Notes under the pieces: model-generated | Database searches by the model: none | The model's input: the letters and a program-made list of their open reading frames with translations, nothing else | What the model was told of the DNA's origin: nothing | Translations under genes and position numbers: made by a program | Part shown: positions 28,088-61,138 of the stretch, piece after piece | Position numbering within the stretch: the stretch's first letter is position 1 | Layout: every line of letters begins with the position of its first letter | Assembly (NCBI GenBank): GCA_051382335.1 | Contig: JBBCAX010000034.1 | Location: forward strand, 20,512-84,511 | Origin: Deltaproteobacteria bacterium TL4 | GTDB taxonomy: Bacteria > SAR324 > NAC60-12 | Direction: 5' to 3' | Length of the DNA: 64,000 bases

Positions 28088-28383
28088 CTATAGGTTGTCA
28101 TTTAAATAAATTCATTTTAATCAGGTTACGGTAGCCCTGGGTTTCGTCCCAGGGGCTGCTATAGGTTGTCATTTAAATAAATTCATTTTAATCAGGTTAC
28201 GGTAGCCCTGGGTTTCGTCCCAGGGGCTGCTAGTTCCTTGTTCCTCGGGACGAAACCCGAGGCTACCATCCTCATTTATTGTGCAATTATTTAAGTGAAC
28301 GTCTATAGTTCCTTGTTCCTCGGGACGAAACCCGAGGCTACCATCCTCATTTATTGTGCAATTATTTAAGTGAACGTCTATAG
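28088..28383. repeat. REP/REPIN-like element with each arm tandemly duplicated (2x71 bp + 2x75 bp)
   Basis: Exact tandem units start at 28088/28159 and 28231/28306. They carry GTAGCCCTGGGTTTCGTCCCAGGG and the near-inverse CCTCGGGACGAAACCCGAGGCTAC. Confidence 0.85.
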
Positions 28384-29744: not shown

Positions 29745-29972
29745 ATCTTCAACATAAGACTCATTTCCTCGGGGCGAAACCCGAGGCTACCTCTGGCCGA
29801 AGCTAGACGCAACCACGAAAAGGTGACCTGGATTTGAACCATGCCCCCAAGCTGTGGCTTGGGAACGAGAAGAAACAAAGCGGGATACCCTGTCCCTCAT
29901 AAAAAAAAATTCGACAAGGGACAAGCCACTGTACCCCGCTTTTTTAAATAATCAAATTCCCAAATAATCAAC

Positions 29973-30113
29973 TCACAAGCCTCCTCGGATACAGCGAACA
30001 TAGTTGTTATAGGACTTATCGTAGTAGCTCACGTAGCCATCGCTGAAGCCCACGCTCCACGCGTAGCTCGTGTCACCGGCGTAAGTAGTAGACGACCAAT
30101 AGCCCGAGGAATT
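29973..30113 (-). repeat. DGR variable region VR-A
   Basis: Colinear with VR-B and VR-C. Variable codons are TAC/AGC/GGC/GAT-type NNY, and the 3' end GGAGGCTTGTGA is shared. Confidence 0.75.
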
Positions 30114-30293
30114 GGTATTAGGAAAATAGGTCGAATTAATAGCAGGACTATAGACAGAATAATCAACAATGGATTGCAGTTCGTTTTTACTGGGGAGCCT
30201 CCAATCGCTTTTACCACCTAAACTCAAGCCTTCACAATAAGTCAAGGCGGCTTCCCAATTACGAGCGGTGTTATCATCTTCTTTTTGCCATAA
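29973..30293 (-). pseudogene. 5'-truncated DUF1566/Lcl domain carrying DGR variable region VR-A
   Basis: In frame directly after the TGA of the 30294-35780 gene (VRCVR*LWQKEDDNTARNW). About 94% identical to 36969-37287 outside the VR by hand count. Lacks the FTDN.DGTVTD start of the domain. Confidence 0.75.
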
Positions 30294-33200
30294 TCATCGA
30301 ACACACCGAACATACATGCTTATATTATTCTCCGATTTTACTTCTCCATTTTGAAAATTAACAAACCATACTATTTCGACTGTATTTTTACTAATAGGAT
30401 CGTAGTCATAATAATTAGTTTTGGACCAATAGTATGAAGATTTTGTATTAGGAAAAAATGAAGTATTGATTGCTGGATTGTAGTTTAAGTCATCCGTGAT
30501 AGACTCCAACTCTTTGATGTTTGGAAGACGCCAATCAGTTTTTCCACCCTGACTCAAATTTTCGCAATAGCTCAACGCATTTCCACGATTCTTTAATGTA
30601 TTGTCATCTTCTTTTTGCCACATCAGTTCAGAAAAATTGTCAGTAATAGTTCCATCACCATTATCTAAAAATGAGGAATCCGTATTTGAGTAACCGCGAA
30701 CACACCTCACACCATGTTTAAATCCCCATGACCGACTACCGACGGAACCATCTCTGAAAGAAACATCCCAAGCCAAATCCTGATTATTCGCATAACTTGT
30801 ATTTGACCAATAATTACCGGTATCTAAAAAGTTGAAATAAGATTCATCGTATCTTAATTCTTTGTTATAAATAATAATTCGAATCAGTTCCTTTTTGGAG
30901 GGCACTCGCCAATCTGAGTAGAACGATAATTCGAGGTTTTCACAATAAGTTACAGCATCCGACATTGTTGGTGTATTTGTAGCATTTGTTTTTTGCCACA
31001 CCAGTCCTGTGACATTATCAGTAACGGTTCCATCTTTATTGTCTGTATAAGACATTCTATTCTCTGAAGCATCTGAGAGCTCTTGTTCTGCTTTCGGAAT
31101 ATGTCCTGTAAAATCGTGAATTGCTTCACTAACCCAAGGACCTTCGCCATTGTTGTTTTTTGTAAAAACAAGTAAGTGGGTTGATCCAGAAGGAATGGAC
31201 GTGTTCGTATCAAAATCAAAACTTAGGTTACTTCCAGAAGCGGCAAGAGTTGTGATCGGAGTGCTGTTTACTTTTGTAGTCGCACTTGATCCCCAATAAA
31301 GTACATAATGTGTAATATCGCTCTCATATCTGGCTTTTGTAATTGTTACGCTTCCGCCTAACTCTCCAGCATCGGTATCTGTATCAACAAATACCACGCT
31401 GGTGGCATTATGAGATGGAACACCAACATCAACAACAACACCATTATGTCCTCCTCTAACACACTTGACATGATTCGTGTCGGTCTTCTCTGAACGCTCC
31501 ACAAAACCATAGTAAAAGTCCACAAACCAAGATTGAGTCATTCCAGCGGTAAATATGAATGTTGTAGATGACCAGTATTTTGATGAATAAGTGTTAGGAA
31601 AATAAGTAGATTCGATTGCAGGATTAAATTCGGAGTCATTAGTTATGGACTCCAATTCTTTAATGTTTGGAAGACGCCAATCCGTTTTCCCACCCAGACT
31701 TAAGTTTTCGCAATAACTTAAAGATTCCCCCCATGATATTTTTGTATAGTAATCGTTTTCTTTCTGCCACATCAACCCTGAAAGGTTATCTGTAACAGTA
31801 CCATCACTATTATCGGTAAACAACGTAAACTCACTTACTCCATTGCGAACACACCGAACATAGTTATTCAGCGACATATGTGAGCTATATACAACTCCGG
31901 AACCAAAATCAATAACCCAGGCTGTATTGCTAAATGCAATATAGTTAGAAGCTGTCCAATAATAATCAGAAGACTTCGTTTTACTGAAATAGGCCTCATT
32001 GATGCTGGAATTATAAGTCCTGTAATTCACAATACGCATCAACGTTTTTTTACTTGGCAGTTGCCAATCAGAAAAGGATGCCAAGTTCAGGCTATTACAA
32101 TAATCTTGAGCTTCTGACCATGTTCTTTTAGTGTTATCATCTTCCTTTTGCCATATTAATCCTGTGATATTATCGGTAATAGTTCCATCATCATTATCAG
32201 TATATGAAGGTTCATTGAGTAAGTAATCGTGGTCTTCACCCAAAGTTGAGGTATAGGAAATGGTTTGTCCTGTATCAGGAATATAATATCCATGACGACC
32301 ATTATCAAAAATGATCACATTAACACCTCTTGCCATTTCGCCCCTAGTGTTTTTGGTAAAAACGAGTAAATGGGTTGATCCAGATGGAATTGATGTATTA
32401 TCAAAATCAAAAGTCTGGTTATTTCCTGTAGCGGATAAAGTGGAAATTGGGATACTATTTGCTTTTGTTGTCGTATCTGATCCCCAATAAAGTACATAAT
32501 GAGTAATATTGCTTTCGTCACTGGCTTTTTTAATTGTTACGCGTCCTCCTAATTCTCCAACATCAGTATCTGTATCTAAAAAAGCTACACTATTTGCAGT
32601 ATGAACAGGAAAACTAACATTGCTTTCACCACTACCACGGACACAACGGACATAACATTCATTATTGCTTTTCCAATGGTCATGAACCTCTCCGTTGCTG
32701 AAATTCACATGCCATGAGTATAGGCGGATGTTGTTGGCTCTGGTAGTGGAAGAGCAATACTTATCTGATTTTGTATTTATGAAATATGTGGTATTTATCA
32801 CTGGATTGTATTTTGAGTCATCCGTGATTGACTCCAACTCTTTAATGTTTGGAAGACGCCAATCCGTTTCTCCTCCCAGACTCAAATTTTCACAATAACT
32901 CAGCGAGCTTTCCCCATTTTTTTTTGTGTTGTCATCTTCTTTTTGCCACATCAATTCTGAAAAATTATCTGTAATGGTACCATCACCATTATCATTATAA
33001 GAAAAAGTTAAATTTGAGGGTTTACGAACACATTTTATATACATCTCGGAAGTCTTACTGCCTGAAAATACATATCCATAACCTAATGAAACAGCAAAAA
33101 CATTATTTGAATCGTTAGAATCAACGGTTGAAGACCAAACAGCGGAGGATACGGAAGTGGGAAAAAAGATTGTATCAATGGCAGGCTCGTACATTCCATA

Positions 33201-36899: not shown

Positions 36900-36968
36900 C
36901 GACAAGGGGCAAGCCCCTGTACCCCGCTTTTTTAAATAATCAAATTCCCAAATAATCAAATAATCAAC
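36900..36968 (-). promoter_or_regulatory. Putative DGR target-recognition region downstream of VR-B (TTATTTGA repeats plus hairpin)
   Basis: The stop is followed by repeated (G)ATTATTT units and then an AGGGG-CTTG-CCCCT hairpin. A near-identical copy follows VR-A; VR-C has similar repeats but no matching hairpin. Confidence 0.55.
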
Positions 36969-37109
36969 TCACAAGCCTCCTCGGACGCAACGGACATAGT
37001 TCGTATTAGTCTTATAGTAGCCGTCCACGTAACCATTGTAGAAGTACACGTACCACGCATAGCTCGTATAGCTAGCGCTGGTAGTGGACGACCAATAGTT
37101 CGACGACTT
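36969..37109 (-). repeat. DGR variable region VR-B
   Basis: 36969-37142 aligns with 39528-39701 with 16 mismatches, all at positions 1-2 of NNY codons. Confidence 0.9.
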
Positions 37110-37429: not shown

Positions 37430-38848
37430 TTAATTCAAGTGTTCTTGTTTATTGGCAGGAAACAACACTTTTTCGGTGATGACTCGTTTCTTTAAACCTG
37501 AACTGTAATACCCCTCTTCATCAACGACAATGTACGAGTAGCCATGCGCTAATATTCGCTTTTTGAAATGTTTTAACAATCTTTTGGGAAATCCGCATTG
37601 TCCTCGAAATCCTCGCTTTCCTTCTTCCATTTTCAGATTTAATAATTTCGAAGCCTGTATCGCCCTTTCGTCATATAATTCATAGTATTGACCCACCTGA
37701 AAAAAAATGAAAAATGTTTTGTAACGACCAGAAAACCAATAATATTGGTTTTTAAATTTTTTTGGAATATAAGGGGGTTCATAGAGAGGACGTAACTGAT
37801 TTTGTTTATCCAATAAAAACAGATGGTTCAACCAAGGATTTTTTCCCCAAATAGCTTGGGTCAATTGAGAGGCATCAGCGTGTTTAAAGTGTCCAATGTA
37901 AGAAGCCAGTGTTTGTCGAACAGCGTTTCTGTTTTCCAAAGACAAATCAATCATAACAGACTGTAACACTTCTGAGACCTCATCGGAGGGGGGTGTAGCC
38001 GAAACACAACTAATAAATGTTTTACTTTGTTTTATTGACGGCCTATCCCCCTGTCTTTTTATTTTGTTTTGAAAAACAATTTGTTTTTCAAGAGAGATGA
38101 GTTTCAGCTTCATGTTACTCACAACCCTGTTCCGAACAAGGGTATAACCGGGTCTGACAATATATCCCAAAAAATCAGACCCTTCACTCACTCGTTTTAG
38201 GATCACTCCAGGTTTCAAGGTCAAAGTCAGTTTTTGGTTGAGAAACACTTCGATAGACTCTTTCATGTGGAACAAGCGTTCTTTTGAGGGGTCTAGTAGA
38301 ATAAAATCGTCCATATACCTCACGTAAAACTGGCATTTTAGGCGGTGTTTTACGTATTGATCCAGCTCATTGAGATAGATATTAGCAAAAAACTGAGAAG
38401 TTAAGTTACCAATGGGCAAGCCTTTCCCTGGTAAAGTATGAAAGAGCGACTTATGAGGTGGAACCCTATCTAACAAGTCAGGGACACCTCGATAAGTGTA
38501 GTTTTCTATACAGGGATGTTGAAGAATTATCTTTGTCATTTGTAACAACGATTCCTCTTTTAAATGCTTTTGAATGATATCAAGCAGGATTTCCCGATCA
38601 ATACTCATAAAAAAACTCCGTATATCCAACTGTAGAAACCATGCGGTCACTTTCCCGCTTTTTGTGACACGAAGCATAAAGGAACGTAACCGCTCAACCG
38701 CAGCATGAGTTCCCTTGTTTTTTCTACAGGCGTAAGAATCATCAATAAACTTTGGTTCCCAAATTTGCTCCAAATGAGGAACCAGCAAATGATGAATAAC
38801 TCTGTCTCTAAAGTCCGCTGCGAAAACTTCTCTGAGTTTTGGTTTTCC
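37430..38848 (-). CDS. DGR reverse transcriptase with C-terminal MutS domain-I fusion; N-terminus missing
   Basis: KPKLREVFAADFRDRVIHH, SYACRKNKGTH, LDIRSFF, GLPIGNLTSQFFANIYLNELD, YVRYMDDF, DFLGY; C-terminal FFQVGQYYELYDERA..ASKLLNL..CGFP. An in-frame TGA at 38849-38851 caps the frame. Confidence 0.9.
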   Translation of the reverse strand, partial: GKPKLREVFAADFRDRVIHHLLVPHLEQIWEPKFIDDSYACRKNKGTHAAVERLRSFMLRVTKSGKVTAWFLQLDIRSFFMSIDREILLDIIQKHLKEESLLQMTKIILQHPCIENYTYRGVPDLLDRVPPHKSLFHTLPGKGLPIGNLTSQFFANIYLNELDQYVKHRLKCQFYVRYMDDFILLDPSKERLFHMKESIEVFLNQKLTLTLKPGVILKRVSEGSDFLGYIVRPGYTLVRNRVVSNMKLKLISLEKQIVFQNKIKRQGDRPSIKQSKTFISCVSATPPSDEVSEVLQSVMIDLSLENRNAVRQTLASYIGHFKHADASQLTQAIWGKNPWLNHLFLLDKQNQLRPLYEPPYIPKKFKNQYYWFSGRYKTFFIFFQVGQYYELYDERAIQASKLLNLKMEEGKRGFRGQCGFPKRLLKHFKKRILAHGYSYIVVDEEGYYSSGLKKRVITEKVLFPANKQEHLN

Positions 38849-39060
38849 TCACTGCAATCCCGTAATTGGGTCAATGCCTGGTATTTTTCAAATTGAGAGT
38901 TTGCTTGAATGACCAACGTCACCAATTTTCGGGACAAATTCCGAAGATCCTGCCCCAAGGCGTATTTATGGGAGCGAGGAAAATCTTTTACAATTTGTTC
39001 AGTCAAAACCGCTAACTCCATTGTTTTTTTATAAAGGGGTAAGTTTTCGTAATAAGCCAT
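38847..39060 (-). pseudogene. avd: Avd-like four-helix-bundle accessory protein, 3'-truncated (ORF reads on out of frame into the RT to 38647)
   Basis: LPLYKK..L..IVKDFPRSHKYALGQDLR resembles Avd. After LRDCSEE the DNA is RT coding sequence in another frame. Confidence 0.75.
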
Positions 39061-39380
39061 TATGTGGAAGCCTTAAGTCGAATGACCTCAGAAACAATTC
39101 GGGTCTTGTTTTCGTCCTGAAATGCAATCGCCACAGACTGTCCAGCTCGTAATAGTTTGCCTATATACGCATCCAGTCCTGATTTGGGAAAGCCTCCTGT
39201 CACATAGGGTTTTTCAGGGGTTCCCCCCATTTTTAATTTCAGACCTGTCAGCTGTGATAGCGTTTTAGCGTCTTCATTCATCAACTGCATGAAAGCACCT
39301 ACCTGCATCAGCAGGATGGTATCAGGTTCTTTTGTTTTAAGGTCTTCATATTGTAAAACTAATTTCTCTGAGTTCATCAT
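39060..39380 (-). CDS. Stand-alone MutS domain-I-like protein (MSL-type DGR accessory gene)
   Basis: QYEDLK..EPDTILLMQVGAFMQLMNEDA..LSQLTGLKL..GFP..LDAYIGKLLRAGQSVAI. Its stop overlaps the avd start (TAATG). Confidence 0.82.
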   Translation of the reverse strand: MMNSEKLVLQYEDLKTKEPDTILLMQVGAFMQLMNEDAKTLSQLTGLKLKMGGTPEKPYVTGGFPKSGLDAYIGKLLRAGQSVAIAFQDENKTRIVSEVIRLKAST

Positions 39381-39527
39381 AAGTCTTTCTCTTTCAAATT
39401 GTATTGATTCCTTTAATTTATGGGAATTCCCCCATTTTTCAGAGCTATCGTCAAAATGTAAAAAAAAATTTTCAGGCTCCGCCATTTTAAAAAAATAATC
39501 AAATTTCCAAATAACCAAATAACCGAC

Positions 39528-39668
39528 TCACAAGCCTCCTCGGACGCAACGGACATAGTACGTATTAGTCTTATCGTAGCCGTACACGTGACCATAGTAG
39601 AAGTTCACGCTCCACGCAGAGCTCGTACCGTAAGCGTAGGTAGTGGACGACCAATAGTACGACGACTT
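39528..39668 (-). repeat. DGR variable region VR-C
   Basis: 3' end of the large lipoprotein gene; differs from VR-B only at NNY positions 1-2. Confidence 0.9.
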
Positions 39669-60736: not shown

Positions 60737-60775
60737 GGTAACGTGTTAGGGTTTGATCCCATTTCTTACCCCTAG

Positions 60776-60911
60776 GAGGCTGTCCGAGAATGGGTTGTAG
60801 GGTGCGCTTAAGCGAAGCGAGCGCACCAAAAAGCTTGCGTCCCCTTGTTTTGGTGCGCTCGCTTCGCTTAAGCAGCACCCTACTTTTAAATACCTATTCC
60901 CGGACAGCCTC
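60776..60911. mobile_element. MITE with GAGGCTGTCCG ends flanked by CTAG, enclosing an inverted REP pair
   Basis: CTAG|GAGGCTGTCCG...CGGACAGCCTC|CTAG; internal GTAGGGTGCGCTTAAGCGAAGCGAGCGCACC and its near-inverse. Confidence 0.75.
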
Positions 60912-61138
60912 CTAGGCTCATGTCAAAACTCCGCCTTGTAGTGGAGTAAGGCCGAGCCGTGAGAACCCACATTACGAGACAGAGTCTTGTAACAGGAAGG
61001 TAATGACGGTAACCGAAGTTAGGATCAAGCCCGAATATCAGTAGAGTCAGACGCAGAGGTGTAGGACTTTTGTGGATACTGACCTGAGATTATATCCTTG
61101 GATGTACTCTCATTTTCAAAAACAAAAAGGAGGACACT

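Follow-up and report, generated by a model that had tools for sequence, protein, structure and literature searches.

A DGR cassette short of about 0.6 kb in Deltaproteobacteria bacterium TL4, with flanking targets probably served in trans

Gene order and the avd/RT junction

The window, that is, the whole stretch of 64,000 nucleotides analyzed here from contig JBBCAX010000034.1 (C34, positions 20512-84511) of Deltaproteobacteria bacterium TL4, carries on the minus strand target A, a gene for a MutS-like (MSL) accessory protein, avd, RT, and target B, in this order (Table 1). Judging from the homology to the copy on contig C135 of the same assembly, the MSL gene likely starts near position 39380. 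The system resembles the MSL-containing DGRs (Architecture D) of Wu et al. (2018; PMC5758913), of which the RTs bear a MutS_I-like C-terminal extension, in the order of MSL, avd, TR, and RT, the C-type-lectin-like targets, the MutS_I motif of the RT, and the non-adjacent targets, the last of which were found in 45 of the 372 DGRs of that study. In contrast to those DGRs, the copy in the window is likely non-functional and the functional member is found on C135 (see below). The DGR of Bordetella phage BPP-1 has the order mtd-avd-TR-brt (PMC3240598; PDB 8ub7).

Table 1. Coordinates of the features in the window (position 1 is the first nucleotide of the window).
Feature	Position	Strand	Description
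Target A, 1248 aa	39528..43274	-	ORF; C-terminal Lcl_C (DUF1566, C-type-lectin-like), PF07603 at residues 1133-1245
VR-A, 130 nt	39538..39667	-	86/86 non-A sites identical to C135 TR; 17/44 A sites changed
MutS-like (MSL) accessory gene	39060..39518	-	PF01624, E=3e-15; 59% identity to the C135 copy
avd remnant, codons 1-72	38845..39060	-	68-69% identity to C135 Avd 1-72; bAvd profile positions 5-59/107
Deletion junction	38843..38851	-	About 613 nt absent relative to C135: avd 3' end, spacer, TR, first ~70 RT codons
RT remnant, 472 open codons	37430..38848	-	Alignment; RVT_1, YMDD intact, C-terminal MutS_I-like domain
Target B, 144 aa	36969..37403	-	ORF; Lcl_C, PF07603
VR-B, 130 nt	36979..37108	-	86/86 non-A sites identical to C135 TR; 13/44 A sites changed
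GC-rich hairpin and T run after target B	36902..36920	-	Terminator-like; candidate targeting hairpin, from sequence
Target C remnant	29973..30293	-	Recent copy of target B, truncated at the 5' end; continues in frame after the terminal TGA of a 1843-aa gene
VR-C	29983..30112	-	Differs from C135 TR at 16/86 non-A sites

The avd frame, which starts at 39060, reads LRDCSEE|NQNSEKF across the junction and then runs out of frame over the RT DNA to a stop at 38647-38649. In the -1 frame, a TGA at 38851-38849 is followed by GKPKLREVFAADFRDR (residues G K P K L R E V F A A D F R D R), and 472 codons are open down to 37430. The first-pass annotation had described avd as fused out of frame into the interior of the RT, with these junction residues and this TGA, and our reading of the minus strand is the same. 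Against an Avd profile of related loci (149 rows), the window sequence fits through S-E-E and mismatches at the next two residues, for which the consensus is L (98/149) and K (103/149) and the window has N and Q. The Pfam bAvd match of the window scores 29.8 bits, under the cut-off of 40, and covers little more than half of the profile positions (Table 1), as opposed to positions 3-106 of 107 in the C135 paralog. The motif PK.RE..A.F.DR was located in 115 of the 120 listed RT homologs, where its median distance to the N-terminus is 72 residues. From the avd start to this motif, the window has 218 nt, as against 516-1757 nt (median 855) in the 96 related loci in which avd precedes RT. The first-pass annotation had noted that this motif normally lies several tens of residues into DGR RTs and that Avd normally has further helices.

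The avd in the window does not encode an intact Avd, and the RT remnant, though it retains RVT_1 and YMDD, is short of a full-length DGR-type RT by about 70 N-terminal residues and has no native start. No TR was detected on C34 when the whole assembly was scanned for AAC-rich runs, in agreement with the first-pass annotation, which had seen none in the window. With no TR, a broken avd, and a broken RT, the window locus contains no functional avd-TR-RT cassette; the leftover half of Avd, which breaks off within the third of four helices, and the N-terminally shortened RT are likely non-functional. Targets A and B both possess Lcl_C, and their VRs differ from a TR, namely that of C135, only at adenines.

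Some minor features of the window are noted here. The RT remnant bears a 29-aa in-frame insertion (around 37975-38060) that is absent in 17 aligned homologs, and imperfect inverted arms lie within it (37988-38001 and 38039-38050). Palindromic REP-like repeats occur at 28231-28380, 29765-29814, and 60771-60916, and include a perfect 75-nt tandem pair. A promoter scan stayed at the chance level (9 found; 7.1 +/- 2.6 expected).

The C135 cassette and the extent of the loss

The search of the genome for a second RT or TR, which the first-pass annotation had recommended, led to an intact paralogous cassette on C135 that comprises a target, MSL, avd (123 aa), TR (19622-19483), RT (508 aa, with MutS_I), and another target. 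The bin to which C34 and C135 belong, as two separate contigs, has a contamination of 2.6%. The C135 RT is the best database match of the window RT besides itself (55% identity), and the two were sisters with an SH-aLRT of 89, unstarred, in a quick tree. This grouping suggests that the two cassettes derive from an in-lineage duplication. Among 60 relatives, strong RT matches were found only in G059 (58%) and G004 (43%), and G059:C42 has the same intact gene order.

Avd codon 73 and the RT proline are separated by 615 nt in C135 and by 2 nt in the window, which is therefore short of 613 nt. The closest comparison is the C135 paralog, no close ortholog having been found, and the breakpoint is resolved only to about 38843-38851, where we infer an overlap of 4-5 nt from the protein consensus. 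The removed segment of about 0.6 kb probably contained the 3' portion of avd, the TR, and the 5' portion of the RT gene. The alignment to the closest intact locus supports the single deletion of these parts that had been proposed from the window and gives it a size. A model of the C135 Avd (mean pLDDT 64.5) places half of helix 3 and the entire helix 4 in the lost part of Avd, and the lost part of the RT aligns to about residues 9-70 of the phage bRT (8ub7), the closest solved structure to the C135 RT (E=1e-40). In a sequence search of solved structures, no significant match to the C135 Avd was found. The RT remnant has a pN of 0.29 and a pS of 0.82 relative to C135, which shows past purifying selection; as, in addition, the 472 codons contain no stop, we read the loss as recent.

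Homologs sharing the junction, which the first-pass annotation had named as evidence against a deletion, were looked for in the best 160 related loci, made up of the best 80 from each scan of genome and metagenome contigs, and none (0/160) had it. Among these 160 loci, the N-terminus of the RT was full in 147, cut by a contig end in eight, and cut by an N gap in one. The other four (L038, L134, L151, and L176) were damaged, each at breakpoints different from that in the window. As none of these loci possesses the same junction, we regard it as a private deletion and neither an architecture of the family nor a programmed frameshift. The 3' half of the TR and the start of the RT are lost in L038, a palindromic repeat replaces the TR and the RT start in L151, avd is truncated and the TR mostly replaced in L176, and the RT start is truncated in L134. 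Judging from their sequences, the four represent independent losses or replacements of the TR/RT 5' region. Decay of the avd-TR-RT 5' segment is thus recurrent in the family (4/160 best related loci). More than half of the candidate DGRs in Wu et al. (PMC5758913) were discarded for stops, truncations, poor matches between TR and VR, or short contigs.

Two other explanations of the junction need to be weighed against a private deletion. The junction could have arisen as a chimera in the library, or the assembly could have fixed a minority allele while most cells possess an intact cassette, both of which we regard as unlikely. It is known from one assembly only, in which the window RT represents one member on one contig, and a second deletion-like junction lies 8.5 kb off (30293/30294). 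Moreover, intact and degraded DGR alleles have been reported to coexist in one population at two loci (Doré et al., PMC10907252). A 22-nt pattern on the avd side was unmatched in metagenome contigs, and a 25-nt junction pattern was unmatched in viral contigs, the records of the source genome itself being possibly absent from both. Several observations speak against both. The overlap between the avd-like and RT-like sequences is only about two codons long, the missing segment was not found anywhere else in the assembly, the contig extends free of N for a further 25 kb to one side and 59 kb to the other, and similar decay was seen in four of the 160 best related loci. Fold-back repeats with short spacers, which are typical of amplification chimeras, were not seen either (arms of at least 100 nt, 99% identity). 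The most frequent overlap between contig ends in the assembly is 127 nt, suggesting a de Bruijn assembly, in which a collapse requires a long shared repeat. Of the assembly artefact raised in the first-pass annotation, a repeat-driven collapse is unlikely, and a chimeric or minority allele retains the low probability given above.

The other explanation, a programmed -1 ribosomal frameshift yielding a functional fusion of Avd(1-72) and RT that would work with the template RNA of C135, is in our judgment very improbable. The RT frame is exactly -1 to that of avd, with the 472 codons open and YMDD kept, and weak hairpins of -9 to -14 kcal/mol (computed without a shuffle control) can be folded downstream. 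Nevertheless, the canonical X XXY YYZ heptamer is absent at the junction, the sole one in the avd frame being at codon 136, and the junction is conserved in none of the 160 best related loci and none of the 120 listed proteins. The supposed fusion would be devoid of Avd helix 4 and half of helix 3 in the above model, as well as the RT part equivalent to approximately residues 9-70 of bRT. Similarity to Avd was found in none of the 120 listed RT homologs (0/120), and longer relatives of Avd were absent among 1211 candidates of 217-2000 aa, albeit this is weak evidence. The frameshift, to which the first-pass annotation had already given little credit, thus fails on both the heptamer and the conservation.

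The flanking VRs and their template

Upstream of VR-A and VR-B, the same domains are divergent from their C135 counterparts, with differences at 40 (target A) and 28 (target B) of 59 third codon positions, in contrast to the VRs themselves, which match the C135 TR at every non-adenine site (Fisher p=5e-13 and 3e-8 for targets A and B). The GC-rich 3' tract of both VRs is identical to that of the C135 TR and gives way to a mismatched tail, as in BPP-1, of which the VR 3' end has a GC-rich tract common to the TR (PMC3240598). VR-A and VR-B leave the C135 TR 10 nt sooner than the VRs of C135 itself (130 vs. 140-141 nt). A hairpin like that after target B was sought behind VR-A and was not found. 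In contrast to BPP-1 (PMC3240598), the hairpin after target B has a CTTG loop, not GRNA, and lies further from the VR, and the DGR in the window is chromosomal and has multiple targets. A common 3' module composed of TTATTTG repeats, a GC-rich hairpin, and a T run follows five targets (B, C, and those on C53, C103, and C187); behind target C, two changes weaken the stem of the hairpin.

A motif scan of the assembly retrieved 25 ends of the Lcl_C type, one of which was the TR itself, and seven of them match the C135 TR with no non-A mismatch. These are two on C135, VR-A, VR-B, and three remote ends on C53, C172, and C187, of which the matches span tracts shorter or longer than 130 nt. No MSL, avd, or RT was found after the three remote VRs in the remaining 0.3-1.8 kb of their contigs. 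The only TR of the Lcl_C type found in the assembly is that of C135. As a control, we compared 23 TRs of the same length from related loci, and none of the 90 pairs with 55-80% RT identity had fewer than 10 non-A differences (the motif search caught 28 TRs in 162 loci, five of other lengths were dropped, and the pairs are non-independent). In intact relatives, 30 of 34 flanking VRs (23 loci) had at most one non-A mismatch to the TR of their own cassette.

The machinery in the window is broken, and the same assembly contains an intact donor, C135, with a TR matching all of the non-A sites. Thus, we consider it probable that the cassette in the window has lost about 0.6 kb and that the flanking targets A and B are still rewritten in trans by the C135 cassette. 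The first-pass annotation had preferred to see the VRs as frozen and mentioned service in trans as the alternative; the match at every non-adenine site argues against the former, and the latter fits better. The two cassettes would have split long ago (RTs 55% identical), and the templates or targets of both would at some point have converged on the C135 template sequence, rendering the local machinery redundant. A recent deletion through short homology could then have removed the redundant machinery at little cost. The current diversification of VR-A and VR-B by C135, which we infer from these matches, would proceed through the integration of C135-derived cDNA at the common GC-rich 3' tract, with the adenine positions randomized. 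In BPP-1, avd, TR, and brt are functional when supplied in trans (PMC5758913, PMC3240598), and 3' integration occurs within the GC tract common to TR and VR (PMC3240598). Speaking against service in trans are the earlier divergence of the window VR tails from the C135 TR, the lack of a hairpin behind VR-A, and the placement of C34 and C135 on different contigs of a bin with some contamination.

Alternatively, the deletion may be real but VR-A and VR-B may have been written before it by a lost TR equal to that of C135, which now does not or cannot target them. As VRs usually follow their own TR (30/34 in the above comparison), the lost TR may indeed have been identical to the C135 TR and have written both VRs prior to its loss. 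The uninterrupted RT remnant is compatible with a loss recent enough for the VRs to be still clean, and the tails of the window VRs are unlike those of the C135 VRs. On the other hand, TRs of RTs this diverged differ at 10 or more non-A sites (0/90 pairs below), so that an extra conversion between TRs is needed, and a pair of paralogs in one genome with about 78% RT identity (L042/L043) has visibly different TRs, as read by eye. The identity of the GC-rich 3' tract to the C135 TR and the remote VRs on C53 and C172, which bear the same signature with equally or more divergent tails, also speak against such targets being out of reach of C135. We regard this explanation as unlikely and retain service in trans by C135; a matching donor remains whether or not the lost TR had beforehand taken on the sequence of that of C135.

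A broken DGR with a donor in trans is an already described kind of locus. In Thiohalocapsa PB-PSB1, DGR4 and DGR5 are served in trans by DGR2 (Doré et al., bioRxiv 10.1101/2023.09.22.558884; PMC10907252). The two systems have in common a locus short of the RT or TR, multiple DGRs per genome, and targets of the C-type-lectin-like kind, and in both, the VRs agree at every non-adenine position with the TR of an intact locus of that genome (PMC10907252). They differ in that MITE/IS arrays replaced the machinery of recent duplicates in PB-PSB1, where diversification was shown in reads (PMC10907252), whereas in the window, a clean deletion seen in assembled sequence fused avd to the RT and the two RTs are only 55% identical. 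Isolates of Treponema denticola without RT and TR keep leftover DGR targets (Nimkulrat et al., 2016, PMC4891356), so that targets with TR-like VRs outlast the loss of the core there as in the window. In contrast to those isolates, in which no DGR core is left and the VRs are frozen (PMC4891356), the assembly analyzed here keeps a matching donor. To call a cassette without TR frozen is premature until the whole genome has been searched.

Target C and a possible switch of template

The remnant of target C sits 7 kb from target B. At 30293-30296, a 1843-aa gene with six Lcl_C domains ends in CVR and a stop, behind which a seventh Lcl_C domain, that of target C, continues in frame without the first ~11 profile positions; this junction is also deletion-like. 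Upstream of the VR, targets B and C are nearly alike, with 10 differences in 177 sites (four in 59 third positions), and the 3' flank is common to both. Inside the VR core, in contrast, 12 of 38 non-A third positions differ (Fisher p=0.002). The non-A differences extend from -10 to +111 and are confined to a tract with the length of a TR. As targets B and C are alike outside this tract and different within it, VR-B and VR-C were likely written by different templates. VR-C has nine mismatches to a foreign TR (L029), as against 14 to the C135 TR, and carries the commoner state of the family at only 7 of the 14 differing sites. VR-C may, on this comparison, be a fossil of the deleted TR of the window.

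A second class of orphan VRs comprises C103:28373, C326:2651, and C140:21116, which differ from one another at 1-3 non-A sites and from the C135 TR at 19. No TR matching this class was found in the assembly, and its members may be truly frozen targets. The class is another candidate for the identity of the lost TR.

It is conceivable, albeit somewhat short of probable, that the template of C135 was written over the VRs, or over the TR, of its sister across about 16 non-A mismatches, and that the sister cassette, having become redundant, was then deleted, with VR-C keeping the displaced template. The duplicate pair of B and C points to VRs being able to change from one template to another, diverged one. 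If this handover is true, DGR templates compete for and capture each other's targets, which bears on the specificity between templates and targets in genomes with multiple DGRs and on the loss of redundant cassettes. A keyword search of part of the literature retrieved no report of a handover between diverged paralogous TRs.

Apparently decaying targets were also seen at G000 C60:43213 and C115:1450, in which VR-like ends contain in-frame stops or several non-A mismatches to the C135 TR. Six more AAC-rich TR-like sequences of another class lie on G000 C58, C133, C153, C156, C207, and C387; on C153, an HRDC-like gene, avd, RT, and TR are found beside a candidate target of 840 aa. Altogether, the assembly is unusually rich in DGRs.
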